Positions 43,210 to 52,533 of a DNA stretch of 64,000 bases are shown piece after piece. The notes under the pieces are model-generated. The model was not told where the DNA came from. It saw only the letters and a list, made by a program, of their open reading frames with translations, and did no database searches. The translations under genes were made by a program, and so were the position numbers. The stretch's first letter is position 1. The number at the start of each line of letters is the position of its first letter. The stretch is from the NCBI RefSeq assembly GCF_054482595.1, contig NZ_CM137008.1; one strand, written 5' to 3'.

Positions 43210-44607
43210 ATTTTTACCCGAGTCGCTAATTTTTGCCGCAAGGTGCTAAGCCGCGAGGAAAGCGAGGCTGAACAGGCAGTCGCCCGTCCACAGGTGACGG
43301 TGATCCCGCGTGAGCAGCATGCTATTTCCCGCAAAGATATCAGTGAAAATGCCCTGAAGGTAATGTACAGGCTCAATAAAGCGGGATACGAAGCCTGGCT
43401 GGTTGGCGGCGGCGTGCGCGACCTGTTACTTGGCAAAAAGCCGAAAGACTTTGACGTAACCACTAACGCCACGCCTGAGCAGGTGCGCAAACTGTTCCGT
43501 AACTGCCGCCTGGTGGGTCGCCGTTTCCGTCTGGCTCATGTGATGTTTGGCCCGGAGATTATCGAAGTTGCGACCTTCCGTGGACACCACGAAGGTAACG
43601 TCAGCGACCGCACGACCTCCCAACGCGGGCAAAACGGCATGTTGCTGCGCGACAACATTTTCGGCTCCATCGAAGAAGACGCCCAGCGCCGCGATTTCAC
43701 TATCAACAGCCTGTATTACAGCGTAGCGGATTTTACCGTCCGTGATTACGTTGGCGGTATGAAGGATCTGAAGGACGGTGTTATCCGTCTGATTGGTAAC
43801 CCGGAAACGCGCTACCGTGAAGATCCGGTACGTATGCTGCGCGCGGTACGTTTTGCCGCCAAATTGGGTATGCGCATCAGCCCGGAAACCGCAGAACCGA
43901 TCCCTCGCCTCGCTACCCTGCTGAACGATATCCCACCGGCACGCCTGTTTGAAGAATCGCTTAAACTGCTACAAGCGGGCTACGGTTACGAAACCTATAA
44001 GCTGCTGTGTGAATATCATCTGTTCCAGCCACTGTTCCCGACCATTACCCGCTACTTCACGGAAAATGGCGACAGCCCGATGGAGCGGATCATTGAGCAG
44101 GTACTGAAGAACACCGATACGCGTATTCATAACGATATGCGCGTTAACCCGGCGTTTTTGTTTGCCGCCATGTTCTGGTACCCACTGCTGGAGACGGCAC
44201 AGAAGATCGCCCAGGAAAGCGGCCTGACCTATCACGACGCTTTCGCGCTGGCGATGAACGACGTGCTGGACGAAGCCTGCCGTTCACTGGCAATCCCGAA
44301 ACGCCTGACGACATTAACCCGCGATATCTGGCAGTTGCAGTTGCGTATGTCCCGACGTCAGGGTAAACGCGCATGGAAACTGCTGGAGCATCCTAAGTTC
44401 CGTGCGGCTTATGACCTGTTGGCCTTGCGAGCTGAAGTTGAGCGTAACGCTGAACTGCAGCGTCTGGTGAAATGGTGGGGTGAGTTCCAGGTTTCCGCGC
44501 CACCAGACCAAAAAGGGATGCTCAACGAGCTGGATGAAGAACCATCACCGCGTCGTCGTACTCGTCGTCCACGCAAACGCGCACCACGTCGTGAGGGTAC
44601 CGCATGA
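43210..44607 (+). CDS. pcnB: poly(A) polymerase I PcnB
   Basis: ORF contains [24 protein letters not shown]...; no in-frame ATG near the conserved N-terminus; start placed at ATT 43210 following published AUU initiation for E. coli pcnB; track ORF starts at TTG 43189. Confidence 0.85.
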
Positions 44608-45083
44608 CAGTGGCGTATATTGCCATAGGCAGCAATCTGGCCTCTCCGCTGGAGCAGGTCAATGCTGCCCTGAAAGCATTAGGCGATATCCCTGAAAGCC
44701 ACATTCTTACCGTTTCTTCGTTTTACCGCACCCCACCGCTGGGGCCGCAAGATCAACCCGATTACTTAAACGCAGCCGTGGCGCTGGAAACCTCTCTTGC
44801 ACCTGAAGTGCTACTCAATCACACACAGCGTATTGAATTGCAGCAAGGTCGCGTCCGTAAAGCTGAACGCTGGGGACCGCGCACGCTGGATCTCGACATC
44901 ATGCTGTTTGGTAATGAAGTGATAAATACTGAACGACTGACCGTACCGCACTACGATATGAAAAATCGTGGATTTATGCTGTGGCCGCTGTTTGAAATCG
45001 CGCCGGAGTTGGTGTTTCCTGATGGGGAAACATTACGTGAAATACTCACTTCACTAGCAGTACCACAACCTGCCATCTGGTAA
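44604..45083 (+). CDS. folK: 2-amino-4-hydroxy-6-hydroxymethyldihydropteridine pyrophosphokinase
   Basis: 159-aa [34 protein letters not shown]...; start overlaps pcnB stop by 4 nt. Confidence 0.95.
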
Positions 45084-45424
45084 TAGCTGTATTATTTTAT
45101 TTTCTTGACGAGAGGAATACAAAATGATACGGCTATTTCATCCACCAAGAAAAAATTATTTTCTTATCTTACTCCTCACATCCCCCTTACACATTAAATA
45201 TACTTAATTTACATTTTAGTTTTTTTTAATTCATTCATGAAATAGCACTTCATGCAAATAGATTAGGCATTTTTTGTTTAAACGACCTAAAATAACAACA
45301 ATTCAATACGCCACATAAATATATTCACACCCGTGATAATTCACCCCTATTACATCCTCCAAAAACTTTGAGTAATATCCGCTCGCAATATTAATTTCAT
45401 ATAATTTTTGTAAGGATGCATGTA
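45084..45424 (+). promoter_or_regulatory. AT-rich leader/promoter region of the yad fimbrial operon
   Basis: 341-bp non-coding stretch that is visibly very AT-rich, with multiple A/T tracts, upstream of yadN. Confidence 0.4.
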
Positions 45425-46021
45425 ATGAAAAAAGCACTTCTCGCAGCCGCTCTGGTTATGGCTTCTGGTTCCGCCCTGGCTGTAGATGGTGGTCATATCG
45501 ACTTTAACGGTATGGTACAGTCCGGTACCTGTAAAGTGGGTGTGGTAGATACTGGTATGCACAGCGTTACCACTGATGGCGTGGTTACCCTGGATACTGC
45601 GAATGTTACTGATACTTTTGCTGAAGTTAGCGCAACTGCTGTCGGTTTACTGCCGAAAGAGTTCATGATTTCTGTTGAGTGTGATCCAGGTGCTCCGAAG
45701 AATGCTGAGTTGACTATGGGTTCTGCAAGCTACGCGAACACCAGCGGTACCCTGAATAACAATATGAACATCACTGTTAACGGTATTGCACCGGCTCAGA
45801 ACGTAAACATTGCAGTTCATAACATGAAAAACAAAGCTGGCGCTGCTGAAATTAAGCAGGTCCATATGAACAACTCTTCTGAAGTTCAGGAACTGACATT
45901 AGACGCAGAAGGTAAAGGCCAGTACGTATTTAACGCATCTTACGTTAAAGCACCGAACAGCCCGGCTGTAACTGCTGGTCATGTAACCACTAACGCGCTG
46001 TACACCGTTGCTTATAAGTAA
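45425..46021 (+). CDS. yadN: fimbrial major subunit (chaperone-usher pilin)
   Basis: Signal peptide MKKALLAAALVMASGSALA; conserved Cys pair; C-terminal pilin-like strand (..LYTVAYK); AGGA 8 nt upstream of ATG 45425; alternative ATG at 45416. Confidence 0.8.
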   Translation: MKKALLAAALVMASGSALAVDGGHIDFNGMVQSGTCKVGVVDTGMHSVTTDGVVTLDTANVTDTFAEVSATAVGLLPKEFMISVECDPGAPKNAELTMGSASYANTSGTLNNNMNITVNGIAPAQNVNIAVHNMKNKAGAAEIKQVHMNNSSEVQELTLDAEGKGQYVFNASYVKAPNSPAVTAGHVTTNALYTVAYK

Positions 46022-46107
46022 TTGATGGTGTGTTGAGCATAAGGTTTGCCAGCAGGCAGACCTTATTTTCTCTAATTTAATCTTTTTACAGACAGCAAGG
46101 AGTGCTT

Positions 46108-46833
46108 ATGTTTCCCTTGGTTAAAAAAACGGTTAGTGCATTATTTGTAAGTACTCTGTTAGCCAGTGCGCCAGCATTTGCTGACATTATTATTTCCGGA
46201 ACACGTATCATTTATAACGCTGATAAAAAAGATGTTAACGTTCGCCTGGAAAATAAAGGGAATCGTCCCTTACTGATTCAAAACTGGTTGGATACGGGCG
46301 ATGACAATGCCGATCCCAGCCAGATCAAAGTGCCGTTTACCGCGACCCCGCCCGTTTCACGCGTAGAGCCAAAACGCGGTCAAACCGTAAAAGTGATGTA
46401 CACCGGTGCAACAGCCCTGCCGAAAGACCGTGAAAGCGTCTACTGGTTTAACGTGCTGGAAGTGCCGCCTAAGCCGAAAGATGCTGAGGCTGACAAAAAC
46501 TTGTTACAGCTGGCTTTCCGTACGCGCATCAAACTCTTTTATCGCCCGAGCGGTTTACAGGGAGAACCGGCTGAAGCACCGGCGAAAATCACCTGGAAAT
46601 TAAACAACGCTCAGTTACAGGCAAATAACCCAACGCCATATTACGTGTCCTTTAATGAGGTCAAGCTGGAAAGCGGCGGCAAAACCTACAACGTCAATTC
46701 CAGCATGGTCGCGCCGTTCAGCCAGGCAAGCTTTGGCGTAACCGGTCTGCCAGGAAGCGTTTCATCCGGAAAAGTGGTCTTTAAAGCGATCAACGACTTT
46801 GGCGGCAACATTGATGGTTCCGCAACATTCTAA
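46108..46833 (+). CDS. yadV: periplasmic fimbrial chaperone (PapD-like)
   Basis: ORF MFPLVKKTVSALFVSTLLASAPAFADIIISGTRIIY... typical of PapD-family chaperones; AAGGAG 5 nt upstream of ATG 46108. Confidence 0.85.
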   Translation: MFPLVKKTVSALFVSTLLASAPAFADIIISGTRIIYNADKKDVNVRLENKGNRPLLIQNWLDTGDDNADPSQIKVPFTATPPVSRVEPKRGQTVKVMYTGATALPKDRESVYWFNVLEVPPKPKDAEADKNLLQLAFRTRIKLFYRPSGLQGEPAEAPAKITWKLNNAQLQANNPTPYYVSFNEVKLESGGKTYNVNSSMVAPFSQASFGVTGLPGSVSSGKVVFKAINDFGGNIDGSATF

Positions 46834-46874
46834 AAAATAAACGGATTCTTTTTAACATCGCCAGGAATGCAACC

Positions 46875-49475
46875 TTGTACCAGTTTACTCATCAAAAAAG
46901 CCGTATCCCGAAAAAAACGCTACTTGCGGCCTGTTGCGCCCTTTTTTACAGCGGCAACAGTTCTGCGGCAGACACGGTGGAATATGACAGTTCCTTCTTA
47001 ATGGGAACTGGCGCATCAACGATTGATGTTAAACGTTATGCTCAAGGCAACCCGACACCGCCGGGTCTCTATAATGTCCGCGTGTTTGTAAACGGTCAGG
47101 CGACGTCCAGCTTAGAAATTCCGTTTGTGGATATTGGCGAAAACAGCGCAGCGGCCTGTATTACCCACAAAAACCTGGCACAACTTCACATTAAGCAACC
47201 TGAACAGCCTGTCACTTTACTCGCCAGAGAAGGTGAGGAAGAGGATTGTCTGGATTTGGCAAAGTCATACGAAAAGGCGGATGTGCGCTTTGACGGTAGT
47301 GACCAGTTTCTCGATCTGACGATCCCTCAGGCCTATGTTTTGAAAAGCTATGGCGGCTACGTTGACCCTTCTTTATGGGAATCGGGAATTAACGCTGCCA
47401 CACTGGCATATACCCTGAACGCGTATCACACAAGTTCAGATAACGACAATAGTGACAGCGTCTATGGCGCATTTAACTCGGGTATCAATTTAGGAGCCTG
47501 GCACTTCCGTGCGCGCGGTAACTATAACTGGACAACAGATAACGGCAGCGATTTCGATTTCCAGGATCGTTACTTACAGCGTGACATTCCGGCAATCCGT
47601 TCACAGATAATTATGGGTGACGCCTACACCACCGGTGAAACGTTTGACTCTGTCAACGTCCGTGGTGTTCGCCTGTACAGCGATAGCCGTATGCTACCTT
47701 CGGCGCTGGCCAGTTACGCTCCGACCATCCGCGGTGTAGCAAACTCCAACGCCAAAGTCACGGTGACGCAAAGCGGTTATAAAATCTATGAAACCACCGT
47801 ACCACCCGGTGAATTTGTTATAGACGACATTAGCCCTTCCGGCTTTGGTAGCGAACTGGTCGTAACCATTGAAGAAGCGGATGGTTCCAAACGCACCTTT
47901 ACGCAACCCTTCTCGTCGGTTGTGCAAATGCAACGTCCTGGTGTAGGTCGTTGGGATTTCAGTGCCGGTAAAGTCATTGATGATAGCCTGCGTTCCGAAC
48001 CCAATATGGGGCAAGCCTCTTATTACTATGGTCTGAATAACCTCTTCACGGGTTATACCGGCATTCAGTTCACCGATAACAACTATCTTGCCGGGCTGTT
48101 AGGTGTGGGTATCAACACCAGCATCGGCGCCTTTGCGGTAGACGTTACCCATTCCCGTGCTGAAATTCCGGATGATAAAACCTACCAGGGGCAAAGTTAT
48201 CGCGTGACCTGGAACAAACTTTTCCAGGATACCGGGACATCATTTAACCTCGCGGCGTACCGCTATTCCACCCAGGATTACCTGGGCCTGCATGATGCGT
48301 TAGTCCTCATTGACGACGCCAAACATTTGTCTGCCGATGAAGACAAAAACACCATGCAGACGTACTCACGTATGAAAAACCAGTTTACCGTCAGCATCAA
48401 CCAGCCGCTGAAAACGACTTACGAAGATTACGGTTCACTGTTTATTTCCGGTAGCTGGACGGATTACTGGGCGGCGAACAATAGCCGCACTGAATATAAT
48501 GTTGGTTACAGTAAAAGCGTTTCGTGGGGCAGTTTCAGCGTCAACCTGCAACGTAGCTGGAATGAAGACGGCGAGAAAGATGACGCGATGTACGTCAGCG
48601 TTAGCGTACCTATTGAGAATATTTTAGGTGGCAAGCGCAAATCTTCTGGTTTCCGCAATTTAAATACTCAGCTCAATACCGATTTTGATGGTTCACATCA
48701 GTTGAATGTTAACAGTTCCGGTAACACTGAAAACAATCTGGTGAACTACAGTGTCAACGCAGGTTATAGCCTCGATAAAAACGCCGGCGATTTAGCCTCT
48801 GTTGGTGGTTATCTCAACTATGAATCAGGGTTAGGCGGTATTTCCGCTTCGGCCTCGGCCACTTCTGATAATAGCCAGCAGTACTCCATCTCCACCGATG
48901 GCGGCTTTGTATTACACAGTGGTGGTTTAACGTTCACTAACAACAGTTTCAGCAGTAACGACACGCTGGTGTTAATCAACGCCCCAGGTGCTAAAGGCGC
49001 ACGAATCAATAACAGTAATAACGAAATCGATCGCTGGGGATATGCCGTGACGTCTTCTGTCAGCCCCTACCGTGAAAACCGGGTAGGTCTGAACATTGAA
49101 ACACTGGAAAACGATGTTGAACTGAAAAGTACCAGCGCCACCACCGTACCACGCAGCGGCTCCGTTGTTTTGACCCGTTTCGAAACTGACGAGGGGCGTT
49201 CTGCCGTGCTGAATATTACTGCCGCCAATGGCAAATCTATTCCGTTTGCTGCGGAGGTTTACCAGGGTGAGGTGATGATCGGCAGCATGGGCCAGGGTGG
49301 TCAGGCATTTGTGCGCGGTATTAACGACAGCGGGGAATTAACAGTGCGTTGGTATGAAAACAACCAAACCATTGACTGTAAGTTGCACTACCAGTTCCCG
49401 GCCCAGCCACAAACGCTGGGAAGTACCAACACCTTATTACTTAACAATCTTACCTGTCAGGTAGCAAATCACTAA
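46875..49475 (+). CDS. htrE: fimbrial outer membrane usher
   Basis: 866-aa ORF between chaperone and minor subunits; apparent TTG start at 46875 (no in-frame ATG upstream). Confidence 0.85.
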   Translation: MYQFTHQKSRIPKKTLLAACCALFYSGNSSAADTVEYDSSFLMGTGASTIDVKRYAQGNPTPPGLYNVRVFVNGQATSSLEIPFVDIGENSAAACITHKNLAQLHIKQPEQPVTLLAREGEEEDCLDLAKSYEKADVRFDGSDQFLDLTIPQAYVLKSYGGYVDPSLWESGINAATLAYTLNAYHTSSDNDNSDSVYGAFNSGINLGAWHFRARGNYNWTTDNGSDFDFQDRYLQRDIPAIRSQIIMGDAYTTGETFDSVNVRGVRLYSDSRMLPSALASYAPTIRGVANSNAKVTVTQSGYKIYETTVPPGEFVIDDISPSGFGSELVVTIEEADGSKRTFTQPFSSVVQMQRPGVGRWDFSAGKVIDDSLRSEPNMGQASYYYGLNNLFTGYTGIQFTDNNYLAGLLGVGINTSIGAFAVDVTHSRAEIPDDKTYQGQSYRVTWNKLFQDTGTSFNLAAYRYSTQDYLGLHDALVLIDDAKHLSADEDKNTMQTYSRMKNQFTVSINQPLKTTYEDYGSLFISGSWTDYWAANNSRTEYNVGYSKSVSWGSFSVNLQRSWNEDGEKDDAMYVSVSVPIENILGGKRKSSGFRNLNTQLNTDFDGSHQLNVNSSGNTENNLVNYSVNAGYSLDKNAGDLASVGGYLNYESGLGGISASASATSDNSQQYSISTDGGFVLHSGGLTFTNNSFSSNDTLVLINAPGAKGARINNSNNEIDRWGYAVTSSVSPYRENRVGLNIETLENDVELKSTSATTVPRSGSVVLTRFETDEGRSAVLNITAANGKSIPFAAEVYQGEVMIGSMGQGGQAFVRGINDSGELTVRWYENNQTIDCKLHYQFPAQPQTLGSTNTLLLNNLTCQVANH

Positions 49476-49476
49476 T

Positions 49477-50037
49477 ATGGAAAATTCTATGAAAAGGATA
49501 CTACTAACATCCGCGTTAATAGGTCTGGGTTTACCGGCGGTTGGCTCTGCAACAGATCTTAATGTCGATTTTACGGCCACCGTATTAGCCACCACCTGTA
49601 CGATAACTATCGTACAAGATGGTGGTCCAGTAGTGACGGGTAGCAACGGTGAATATAGCCTGACAATTCCCGATGTTGGCCTGGATAAAGTTGTCACTGG
49701 AGATGTTGCAGCTCAAGCCAACTTTAAATTAGTGGCTTCCGATTGCAGCAATGGTTATTCAAAGATTTTTACCACACTTACAGGAACAACGGTTTCCGGT
49801 AAGTTAATTGTTAATGAAACAACCTCTGGCGCTACGGGTGTGGGTATGGGGATTAAGCGTAGAGATACCGCAGACTCGGCTTTCTTTACGCCAAATAATA
49901 CTGACAAATTTGAATGGAGTACCGATGAGAAAGCTAACGGTGTGCCTCTGACCGTAGCACTGCGCGAAACAACGGCAGGAGCAGGACGCACTGGTGCGTT
50001 TCAGGCAAAAGCCACCTTTAACTTCACCTACGAATAA
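49477..50037 (+). CDS. yadM: fimbrial minor subunit
   Basis: 186-aa ORF with signal peptide and C-terminal ..ATFNFTYE; alternative start at MKRILL (49492). Confidence 0.8.
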   Translation: MENSMKRILLTSALIGLGLPAVGSATDLNVDFTATVLATTCTITIVQDGGPVVTGSNGEYSLTIPDVGLDKVVTGDVAAQANFKLVASDCSNGYSKIFTTLTGTTVSGKLIVNETTSGATGVGMGIKRRDTADSAFFTPNNTDKFEWSTDEKANGVPLTVALRETTAGAGRTGAFQAKATFNFTYE

Positions 50038-50051
50038 CAGGGACAGCCACC

Positions 50052-50663
50052 ATGAAATTAAAAGTCATAGCTACACTGATTGCTACTGTTGCCGTGGGTG
50101 CCAGCGTTAGCAACAATCTCACTTATGCGAGTACGACATCCGCCTCTTTAACCGTAAACAGTAACCTGACTATGGGTACCTGTAGTGCGAAGGTAGTGGA
50201 TACCAGTGGTGCCGTGATCGACACCGTTGTCTTGGGCAATGTTTATATTTCTGAACTGGCAGCCAAAAGCAAGGTGCAACCATTTAAAATCCGCTTCAGC
50301 GATTGTGCCGGGCTTCCAGGAAAGAGTGCTCAACTCGTCTTAGCGCCCAAAAACAACGGTTGCGCAGGAGGCATGTCTGACACTGCCGCCTTTTCAAATA
50401 AACTCAACACCACCACCGATGGTGGTTCAAGCAGAGCAGCAGTCGAAGTATGGACGACTACAAGCCCCGAAGGAACTGGCAGTGAGCAATTCAATTGTTA
50501 TCAGCGAAACGTCATCAATGTCGATCTTTCTAATGCCAGCACAACACAGCCTTATGATTTCGATTTAAGCGCGCGAATGATTATCGCTGGCGGGTGGACA
50601 GTCAATGACGTATTACCGGGTAGATTCCTCTCTCCTACGACTTTCACAATCACTTATCAGTAA
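50052..50663 (+). CDS. yadL: fimbrial minor subunit
   Basis: 203-aa ORF with signal peptide MKLKVIATLIATVAVGASV and C-terminal ..TFTITYQ. Confidence 0.8.
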   Translation: MKLKVIATLIATVAVGASVSNNLTYASTTSASLTVNSNLTMGTCSAKVVDTSGAVIDTVVLGNVYISELAAKSKVQPFKIRFSDCAGLPGKSAQLVLAPKNNGCAGGMSDTAAFSNKLNTTTDGGSSRAAVEVWTTTSPEGTGSEQFNCYQRNVINVDLSNASTTQPYDFDLSARMIIAGGWTVNDVLPGRFLSPTTFTITYQ

Positions 50664-50683
50664 TAGCGGATAAGGATATTAGA

Positions 50684-51274
50684 ATGCTATGCAGGCATCA
50701 TAAATTTGTACGTTTTTTGGGGCTGGCAACAGCCCTCATTACGCCTTTTGCCTATGCTGGCCAGGATGTGGATCTCACGGCGCAGATTGTGGCCAGCACC
50801 TGTCAGGTGGAAGTCAGTAATAATGGCGTTGTCGATCTCGGCACAGTGACGCTGGACTATTTTGCTGACAATGTGACCCCAACGACGGATTACGCGGGTG
50901 GCAAAACGTTTAATGTTAATGTGGTCTCTTGCGATAACATTCAAACGACACAGTCGCAAATGAAATTAGATTTTCAGCCGCAGGCGGGAGCGCTTGCACA
51001 GGTGAATAATCAAATTTTTAGTAATGAATACGAACAGCAGGCTACCGGGGCGAAAAACGTCGGCATTGTGATATTTTCGGCCCAACCGAATCAGCAGACA
51101 TTTAACGTGCGAGGAACAGATGGTTCCTCAGCAGCAATTTATTCGGTCGCGCCTGGCAATGCTGTTCCCTCAACCTGGACCTTTTATTCCCGTATGCAGC
51201 GGGTGAATAATGCCCTTCCTCCTGAATCGGGAATGGTGAGAAGCCAGGTTATTGTTAACGTATCTTACGAATAA
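50684..51274 (+). CDS. yadK: fimbrial minor subunit
   Basis: 196-aa ORF with signal peptide and C-terminal ..VNVSYE. Confidence 0.8.
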   Translation: MLCRHHKFVRFLGLATALITPFAYAGQDVDLTAQIVASTCQVEVSNNGVVDLGTVTLDYFADNVTPTTDYAGGKTFNVNVVSCDNIQTTQSQMKLDFQPQAGALAQVNNQIFSNEYEQQATGAKNVGIVIFSAQPNQQTFNVRGTDGSSAAIYSVAPGNAVPSTWTFYSRMQRVNNALPPESGMVRSQVIVNVSYE

Positions 51275-51285
51275 TAAGGATAATT

Positions 51286-52398
51286 ATGCAAAGGAAAGGC
51301 AATAAACTGTTGATTCAGTTATGCAGTGCGATACTGCTATTTTTTACCACATCCTGGTATGCATTGGCGAATGAATGTTATATAGAGAGAAATGCTGAAG
51401 GGCCTTATGATATGGTGATAAACCGAAAGCCTTTCAGTATACAGTCAGCGATGGTCACAGTCCCGGAAGAAATAGGCTTCGCGACCTGGGATTCTCATAT
51501 TGATCTTCGGGGCGATAAGATTGGTTGTAAATCCTTAGGTAGTAACACAAGCTCAGTGCATTTTCTTAATACTGCTGATGCCAGTCTCTTATCAACCTAT
51601 ACTACCAGCCATGGCGATGCTTTATTGAAAACAACCGTTCCCGGTATTGTTTATTCAGTAGAATTAGTATGTACAAGTTGTGGAGCCGCGGAGGAGCTTG
51701 ATTTGTATCTTCCTGCACAAAGTGGTGCAGATAATCATACAGATAACGCCAGCTCAAAGTGGGCCTATGAGTATAGTGACGAGAGCTGGTATTTACGATT
51801 TCGTTTTTTCTGGACCCCGGAATTTAAACCTCAAAATGGGGTTTCAGAAGGAACTGCGATACCAGGTAAAATAGCTTCCTGGTATATAGGCAATAATGAT
51901 CAACCATGGATAAATTTTTTCGTTGATACAAGCTCCGTTCATTTTTACGTTGACGAACCGACCTGTGCAACAGTTGCCCTCGCACAAGATCAGGGCAACG
52001 TCAGTGGCAACCAGGTAACGCTTGGGAACAGTTATGTTTCAGAAGTGAAAAATGGGCTTACGCGGGAAATCCCTTTTTCTATCCGTGCTGAATACTGTTA
52101 TGCCAGTAAAATAACGGTTAAATTGAAAGCGGCAAATAAACCCAGCGACGCCACACTAGTAGGTAAAACGACTGGCTCTGCTTCAGGCGTGGCTGTAAAA
52201 GTAAATTCAACTTATGACAATAGCAAAGTATTGTTAAAAGCAGATGGTAGCAACACGGTTGACTATAACTTCGCCGTCTGGTCAAACAACCTGCTGCTTT
52301 TACCTTTTACGGCGCAGCTGGTACCGGATGGCAGTGGTGCTGCTGTCGGTGTTGGAACCTTCTCTGGTAACGCGACCTTCTCCTTTACCTACGAATAA
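51286..52398 (+). CDS. yadC: fimbrial tip adhesin (two-domain, lectin domain plus pilin domain)
   Basis: 370-aa ORF, last gene of the cluster, signal peptide, C-terminal pilin-like ..ATFSFTYE. Confidence 0.75.
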   Translation: MQRKGNKLLIQLCSAILLFFTTSWYALANECYIERNAEGPYDMVINRKPFSIQSAMVTVPEEIGFATWDSHIDLRGDKIGCKSLGSNTSSVHFLNTADASLLSTYTTSHGDALLKTTVPGIVYSVELVCTSCGAAEELDLYLPAQSGADNHTDNASSKWAYEYSDESWYLRFRFFWTPEFKPQNGVSEGTAIPGKIASWYIGNNDQPWINFFVDTSSVHFYVDEPTCATVALAQDQGNVSGNQVTLGNSYVSEVKNGLTREIPFSIRAEYCYASKITVKLKAANKPSDATLVGKTTGSASGVAVKVNSTYDNSKVLLKADGSNTVDYNFAVWSNNLLLLPFTAQLVPDGSGAAVGVGTFSGNATFSFTYE

Positions 52399-52421
52399 GT
52401 AAAACGTCATTCCTTCCTCAT

Positions 52422-52455
52422 CGCACCAGAGTTCTGCTCTGGTGCGAACATTTTC
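52422..52455 (+). terminator. terminator hairpin downstream of yadC (end of fimbrial operon)
   Basis: Inverted repeat GCACCAGAG-ttctg-CTCTGGTGC after the yadC stop. Confidence 0.5.
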
Positions 52456-52533
52456 CCCACACTAAAAACCATTGCCCCCCTGATTTCGACTGTTAGAATG
52501 CGATCAATCTGACTTTAGCCATCAGGATACGTT

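Follow-up and report, generated by a model that had tools for sequence, protein, structure and literature searches.

An AT-rich leader upstream of a divergent yad chaperone-usher operon as a candidate H-NS-silenced control region

What is the role of the strikingly AT-rich DNA that separates folK from a chaperone-usher fimbrial operon on contig NZ_CM137008.1 (RefSeq assembly GCF_054482595.1)? A preliminary description of this locus had proposed that it is the silenced promoter of a cryptic fimbrial operon. We analyzed it within a stretch of 64,000 nucleotides, hereafter the window, and refer to the intergenic DNA as the leader. The leader was bounded by the first base past the folK stop and the base preceding the RefSeq-annotated ATG at 45425. 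The main features of the locus are as follows:

44604..45083, plus strand: folK, whose last 40 bp (from 45044) already lie in the divergent cassette
45044..52520, plus strand: divergent allelic cassette of 7.5 kb (46.3% GC), comprising the leader and a seven-gene chaperone-usher operon
45084..45424, plus strand: AT-rich leader, intergenic DNA from the folK stop to the start of the fimbrial operon (341 bp, 71.0% AT, 9.4% G)
45425..46021, plus strand: major fimbrial subunit (Pfam Fimbrial), 40% identical to K-12 YadN
46108..46833, plus strand: fimbrial chaperone (PapD_N/PapD_C), 62% identical to K-12 YadV
46875..49475, plus strand: outer-membrane usher (PapC_N/Usher/PapC_C), 61% identical to K-12 HtrE

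The composition of the leader sets it apart from everything around it. Its 118 A, 67 C, 32 G and 124 T amount to 71.0% AT, against a mean of 48.5 ± 4.4% across all 341-bp windows of the 64 kb. Only 0.036% of these windows reach at least 71% AT and every one of them is at the leader locus, which is also the sole cluster with at least 64% AT and contains the AT-richest 341-bp stretch of the window. GC content is 54.1% in the flanking upstream core DNA and 46.3% in the fimbrial operon downstream. Hence, the preliminary description was correct in calling the 341-bp leader very AT-rich and unlike the GC-balanced core genes beside it. As expected of an H-NS target, AT content over a few hundred base pairs is far above average, here measured against the window. 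Nowhere else in the 64 kb is G as scarce as in the leader (9.4%) or the GC skew as negative, and its C/G ratio of about 2 (2.09) is shared by the leaders of E. albertii and E. whittamii.

The RefSeq gene order is pcnB, folK, fimbrial protein, chaperone, usher, four more fimbrial proteins and panB. Both the position between folK and panB and the order of genes are those of the gamma-4 Yad locus, yadN-yadV-htrE-yadMLKC in K-12. However, the usher is only 61% identical to that of K-12 and 60% to that of CFT073, which is below the 80% identity to HtrE used to define Yad in PMC13245861. The ushers of K-12, CFT073 and 042 are 73-87% identical to one another, while that of the window is about 60% identical to each. 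Of the gene names previously given to this locus, folK stands, whereas yadN can be applied only as a positional counterpart, given its 40% amino acid identity to K-12 YadN. The EHEC literature likewise names the same allele 'yad' on positional grounds (PMC11287998, PMC3559732).

Comparison to K-12 revealed how far the divergence extends. DNA identity is 98.4% upstream to 45043 and 92.4% downstream (panB/panC), but similarity collapses from 45044 until 52521, just ahead of panB. This collapse makes the leader part of a 7.5-kb allelic cassette, inherited as one piece with its operon. The left recombination breakpoint falls within folK, 40 bp short of its 3' end, such that the C-terminus of FolK is changed, and the right breakpoint falls before panB. 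The operon is a divergent yad allele of the O157/E. albertii type, and the leader is its 5' control region. At this locus the window matches E. coli XH990, which was isolated from human urine in China, with 100% identity. The major subunit protein is identical to WP_000709670.1 of O157:H7, and its gene matches that of O157:H7 at 109 of 109 four-fold synonymous sites. In the same comparison folK is 81% and the chaperone gene 91% identical at such sites, which points to a very recent mosaic exchange of yadN alone.

We next compared the leader to those that have been studied at the same site. Local alignment of the window and K-12 leaders scored 17, against 15.6 ± 2.4 in shuffles, and is not significant. 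Searching E. coli genomes by blastn in both directions between the two leader types returned 0 cross-matches, and blastn with 7-mers gave only short, chance-level patches against the K-12 and CFT073 leaders and nothing at E ≤ 1e-3 against that of 042. A block containing CTTAATT was considered as an element common to the K-12 leader and rejected for want of statistical support, and EAEC 042, of interest for its hns transcriptomes, was rejected as a carrier of the window's allele because it bears another, K-12-family variant. Nevertheless, the window, K-12, CFT073 and 042 leaders are all 341-369 bp long with 70-74% AT and more C than G on the sense strand. The K-12 leader, which also lies between folK and a seven-gene gamma-4 operon ending before panB, has 369 bp and 73.4% AT. 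Its C>G skew is weaker (1.45 versus 2.09), it has a weak all-A/U hairpin after folK where the window has a strong one, and the proteins encoded downstream are 40-62% identical. The CFT073 leader has the same position and role (363 bp, 74.4% AT). Its allele belongs to the K-12 family, with a YadN that is 86% identical to K-12 and 42% to the window, and it cannot be aligned with the window leader.

Silencing by H-NS has been published for the K-12 family of leaders. The yadN/folK region of K-12 is an H-NS-associated 'promoter island' (156927_379; PMC3661553). Three genome-wide data sets show H-NS bound at K-12 yadN, which SlyA derepresses (PMC5797941). Deletion of hns raised Pyad activity more than 100-fold in CFT073 and EC958 and switched on YadN, a repression backed by reporter assays, qRT-PCR, western blots and complementation, with ChIP-seq occupancy of the yad leader by H-NS in CFT073 and hns-mutant derepression of yad in K-12, CFT073 and EC958 (PMC13245861). 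Serum and infection in vivo relieve the repression of Pyad. According to the authors, Yad does not undergo phase variation, and ArcA is implicated in K-12 yad, for which they cite Larsonneur 2016 (PMC13245861). Under its 80% usher threshold, the same study classed phylogroup E as 'Yad-negative'; this score affects strains that carry the window's allele.

Expression has been reported for yad of EHEC O157:H7 (locus 2, Z0146-Z0152 / ECs0139-0145), which is the same allele and whose leader is 96% identical over the proximal 270 bp. All of its yad genes are expressed from native promoters in vitro, as three transcription units, and are induced by ethanolamine (PMC11287998). They are also induced in response to acid (PMC7098969). 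The sole hint of H-NS control, an indirect one, is that yadN transcripts dropped in O157:H7 Xuzhou21 when hha was supplied on a plasmid (PMC3667801). Thus, any silencing of EHEC yad is incomplete given its native expression in vitro, and calling the operon 'cryptic', as had been done at the outset, may be too strong when the same allele is detectably expressed in EHEC (PMC11287998). In the literature searched, H-NS ChIP covered only the K-12, SE11, SE15 and CFT073 alleles, and we found neither ChIP nor an hns-mutant study for the window-type allele.

The specific sequence signals sought for H-NS binding were largely missing from the leader. The A/T tracts had been described as phased, which our analysis contradicted: AA/TT power at 10-11.5 bp was 0.53, a value reached by 58% of dinucleotide-preserving shuffles, and no single period was prominent in the Fourier spectrum of AA/TT in the leader. 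Predicted curvature under a wedge model averaged 19.6 degrees in the leader and 17.0 in the window, which is ordinary. There is one local peak near 45280, at the 99.8th percentile yet only the 12th highest of the window; of these wedge-model values, the relative ranking alone is meaningful. The high-affinity H-NS nucleation motif TCGATAAATT had 73 matches at ≤ 2 mismatches in the 64 kb, of which 0 were inside the leader (45084-45424). Such a motif is helpful to nucleation but not obligatory. We identified no site for a specific regulator in the leader, including the ArcA box, which had no match at ≤ 3 mismatches.

Promoter-like sites and a start region could be discerned within the leader:

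45175..45204, plus strand: promoter-like CTCACA-18-TATACT (9/12), with its -10 part within the distal conserved block
45264..45293, plus strand: promoter-like TAGGCA-18-TAAAAT (9/12), with TAGAAT as the -10 in O157 and not conserved in E. whittamii
45349..45378, plus strand: weaker promoter-like ATTACA-18-TAATAT (8/12), both hexamers in columns nearly invariant across species
45412..45416, plus strand: Shine-Dalgarno AAGGA, within the invariant TTTTTGTAAGGAT and 8 nt ahead of the ATG

In a promoter island, promoter-like signals are unusually dense across 300 bp or more; we gauged this density with a simple consensus scan rather than the original PlatProm (Panyukov & Ozoline). By this measure, two sites score at least 9/12, which ranks the leader among the top 4.4% of 341-bp windows. 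However, this number is not above that of composition-matched shuffles (2 versus 2.8 ± 1.8), so the sequence by itself does not single out a transcription start. Several peculiarities surround the start codon. There is an in-frame upstream ATG at 45416, ahead of the yadN ATG (45425), and an out-of-frame start-stop, ATGTAA (45420-45425), overlaps the latter; this start-stop is conserved in E. whittamii and not in E. albertii. The AAGGATG of the Shine-Dalgarno region (in the vicinity of 45416-45427) resembles a CsrA GGA site. Further upstream, ATGAAATAGCACTTCATGCA at 45237-45256 resembles the 5' end of yadN (45425-45445), with 14 of 17 positions agreeing in register. Other species do not conserve it, and the likeness could be due to chance or to a duplication that is now vestigial.

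To place the leader in context, we counted leader types among 5426 complete E. coli genomes:

Window/O157-like leader: 423 of 5426 genomes, 92 of them full length
K-12-like leader: 3101 of 5426 genomes
CFT073-like leader: 561 of 5426 genomes

Approximately one quarter of the genomes fell outside these three classes, having other leaders or none, and by these counts the leader is far more variable than the flanking core genes. Carriers of the window type are mostly O157:H7/O55:H7 strains with a 60-bp deletion, along with O145 and scattered others. The same allele occurs in three other Escherichia, with major subunits that are 91% (Escherichia sp. E1V33), 86% (E. albertii) and 73% (E. whittamii) identical to that of the window. 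In E. albertii the leader is 487 bp long, with about 146 extra, unrelated base pairs directly after folK, and only its proximal ~230 bp can be aligned to the window. Mobile elements have entered the leader in other strains, as expected of AT-rich silent DNA: E. coli H9Ecoli has IS1 in the same leader and has lost most of the operon, and O157 strain 140 has a Mu-like prophage at the equivalent of ~45326 in the window.

Two parts of the leader are recognizably conserved between species:

45191..45240, plus strand: distal conserved block with the core CTTAATT at 45203-45209, 70% identical in E. whittamii and 60% in E. albertii
45301..45424, plus strand: proximal conserved region, 75% identical in E. 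whittamii and 63% in E. albertii

Conservation is highest in the ~125 bp adjoining the gene, where the ribosome-binding site lies, and strings invariant across species comprise TTTTTGTAAGGAT around the Shine-Dalgarno, TTACAT, ATAA.TC, CAATA and CTTAATT. The core promoter and/or the 5' UTR probably lie in 45301-45424. The identity of this region to E. albertii (0.63) equals that of four-fold synonymous sites in yadN and the chaperone gene (0.63), and its identity to E. whittamii (0.75) compares with four-fold synonymous identities of 0.74 in folK and 0.49 in yadN. Since the proximal leader is conserved at the level of synonymous sites, its conservation is no proof of constraint.

Further elements of the leader, several of them at its folK-proximal end, are the following:

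45078..45147, plus strand: strong RNA/DNA hairpin spanning the end of folK, stop codon included (-25 kcal/mol, z -5.8)
45097..45106, plus strand: copy 1 of the 10-bp direct repeat TTATTTTCTT, the left boundary of a 60-bp segment absent from O157:H7-type leaders
45157..45166, plus strand: copy 2 of the 10-bp direct repeat TTATTTTCTT
45139..45216, plus strand: G-depleted, C-rich tract 1, rut-like (21 C and 1 G in 78 nt)
45285..45362, plus strand: G-depleted, C-rich tract 2, rut-like (24 C and 3 G in 78 nt)

The hairpin has a 17-bp stem (45082-45098/45121-45137) that includes two G.U pairs, a further 5-bp stem inside it and four pairs outside it. None of 200 shuffles folded equally well. It is a candidate terminator or stabilizer of the folK transcript, but its tail, UAUUUCAU, is U-rich (5/8) only if it is taken to include the four A-U pairs at the base of the stem. 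A consensus terminator scan did not call the hairpin and found no other terminator-like site after folK. O145 retains the hairpin (-21.5 kcal/mol, z -5.4), whereas the O157 leader has lost it (-4 kcal/mol, z 0.1) and it is not recognizable in E. albertii. Leaders of the O157:H7/O55:H7 type contain a single copy of TTATTTTCTT and lack the 60 bp between the repeats; this deletion is what abolishes the hairpin in O157. The folK of O157 is also one codon longer than that of the window. The full-length form is probably the ancestral state, because E. whittamii keeps sequence homologous to the right end of the 60-bp segment. An insertion of 60 bp with target-site duplication is unlikely because the left arm of the hairpin lies outside the indel. 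A repeat or mobile-element origin of the segment was rejected, as it is single-copy in genomes.

Both C-rich tracts are within the top 1% of the window. They have the composition of rut sites, that is, about 80 nt of untranslated, unstructured, C-rich and G-poor RNA, although composition alone leaves their Rho dependence only putative. In C>G excess, the tract at 54355-54794 ranks second in the window (36 C and 8 G in the 78 nt of 54664-54741). Because it lies within rpnC, a gene on the minus strand, its skew probably reflects the purine richness of the coding strand.

Taken together, how might the leader work? We consider it likely that its downstream ~230 bp hold the promoter or promoters and 5' UTR of the operon, and that a coat of H-NS/StpA keeps their transcription low. 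We infer this silencing from the position and composition of the leader and from the behavior of the unrelated leaders at the same site. H-NS/StpA binding tracks AT content rather than strict sequence, so the leader is most likely covered by an H-NS filament, which would probably spread into the 46% GC operon. Silencing would hold transcription low until environmental signals or antagonists relieve it, as at the K-12, CFT073 and EC958 leaders. Accordingly, the original proposal of a silenced fimbrial promoter is favored by composition, position and the published leaders of the same site, but draws no help from phased tracts or a nucleation motif. That cryptic fimbrial operons have AT-rich leaders silenced by H-NS is textbook knowledge. 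Salmonella pef and E. coli mat/ecp, sfm, yeh and elf also have AT-rich regions upstream of poorly expressed fimbrial operons. There, H-NS acts as the repressor, and antagonists, SlyA among them, lift the repression (PMC6844306, PMC5797941, PMC4720273). For these systems binding and derepression were measured, whereas the window leader is likened to them by its composition and position.

The upstream ~130 bp probably serve the pcnB-folK operon instead. There, the hairpin followed by unstructured, C-rich and G-poor RNA would stop read-through from folK intrinsically and/or via Rho, insulating the fimbrial genes from constitutive pcnB-folK transcription. That the hairpin and C-rich tract terminate the folK transcript in this manner, as a complement to silencing, is a tentative proposal that we regard as possible but not probable.

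Two other accounts of the leader compete most seriously with H-NS silencing. In one, the leader is an ordinary regulated promoter whose expression is set by specific activators or repressors, and its AT-richness is a passive legacy of a foreign or ancient cassette in which H-NS has no significant role. This account would fit the native expression of the same allele in EHEC and its response to ethanolamine and acid (PMC11287998, PMC7098969), as well as the missing H-NS motif and phasing and the unexceptional curvature, and specific factors could bind the blocks that are conserved across species. Yet no site for such a factor was identified, not even an ArcA box within three mismatches, and the leaders tested at this site are strongly repressed by H-NS (PMC13245861). 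Moreover, leaders at this site that cannot be aligned to each other all keep 70-74% AT and a similar length. In E. coli, a 340-bp tract at 71% AT is very rarely free of H-NS. We therefore judge an ordinary promoter to be unlikely. In the other account, the leader acts mainly at the 3' end of pcnB-folK as a terminator or insulator, built from the hairpin and Rho-utilization tracts, with the fimbrial promoter being minor. The stability of the hairpin, the extreme C-richness of both tracts, a GC skew and G content that are the lowest of the 64 kb, the sharing of this skew with E. albertii and E. whittamii, and the lack of another terminator after folK in our scan all speak for it. On the other hand, the hairpin is lineage-specific, was lost in O157 without obvious consequence and has a weak U-tail, the second C-rich tract is in the best-conserved, promoter-proximal part, and an excess of C over G is by itself no proof of Rho action. 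We view a primarily terminating role as somewhat doubtful, and it would complement a silenced promoter rather than exclude it.

Neither a hidden gene nor a switch accounts well for the leader. The preliminary description had allowed that a small regulatory RNA or small protein might be concealed there, while correctly observing that there is no ORF of at least 60 codons; the ORFs contained in the leader encode 22-44 aa. The plus strand of the whole leader does fold better than shuffles (z -2.65), but this signal stems from the single hairpin at the folK stop. The covariance models of Rfam 15 had 0 matches at E ≤ 1 on either strand of 44000-46500, and the terminator scan gave no terminator-like 3' end inside the leader. 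Small ORFs of 27, 30 and 44 aa occur, but the starts of the first two are lost in O157 through the 60-bp deletion, the 27-aa ORF begins with ACG rather than ATG in O145, and no leader ORF has a Pfam family match. A 70-aa antisense ORF (45350-45562) overlaps the last 75 bp of the leader, lies mostly inside yadN and also has no family match. We thus find the suggestion of a hidden RNA or protein very improbable. Many fimbrial operons are controlled by phase switches, which raises the prospect of an invertible, fimS-type element or a Dam/Lrp-controlled, pap-type switch. However, GATC does not occur between 44893 and 45682, only weak and unconvincing inverted repeats flank the leader, and no recombinase or papI/papB-like gene is adjacent to it, so that neither a pap-like nor a fim-like switch is present. 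As Yad is also stated not to be phase variable (PMC13245861), we hold phase variation to be the least credible explanation.

The loss of the folK-proximal hairpin in O157 would be a simple and testable explanation of why strains differ in yad expression. We speculate, at long odds, that the 60-bp deletion in O157:H7/O55:H7 removes a functional folK terminator, such that read-through from pcnB-folK enters the yad leader and partly bypasses silencing. If true, this would explain why yad is natively expressed in EHEC versus a cryptic operon elsewhere, and the full-length leader of the window would represent the insulated, ancestral state.

That the yad leader is silenced by H-NS was already known from K-12 and ExPEC, and our findings leave the current understanding of H-NS and fimbrial regulation unchanged. 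What is specific to this case is a deeply divergent allele whose leader shares no sequence with the tested leaders but has the same length and composition, together with the loss of the hairpin in O157. The name 'yadN' masks this deep allelic split. All H-NS work on yad has used leaders of the K-12 family, so that silencing of the O157/E. albertii-type leader is only assumed, and a 2026 survey scored strains carrying the window-type allele as Yad-negative. If H-NS silencing does hold here, the locus would offer a clean natural case in which a regulatory property (length, AT content, strand skew) was kept while the sequence itself was completely replaced.
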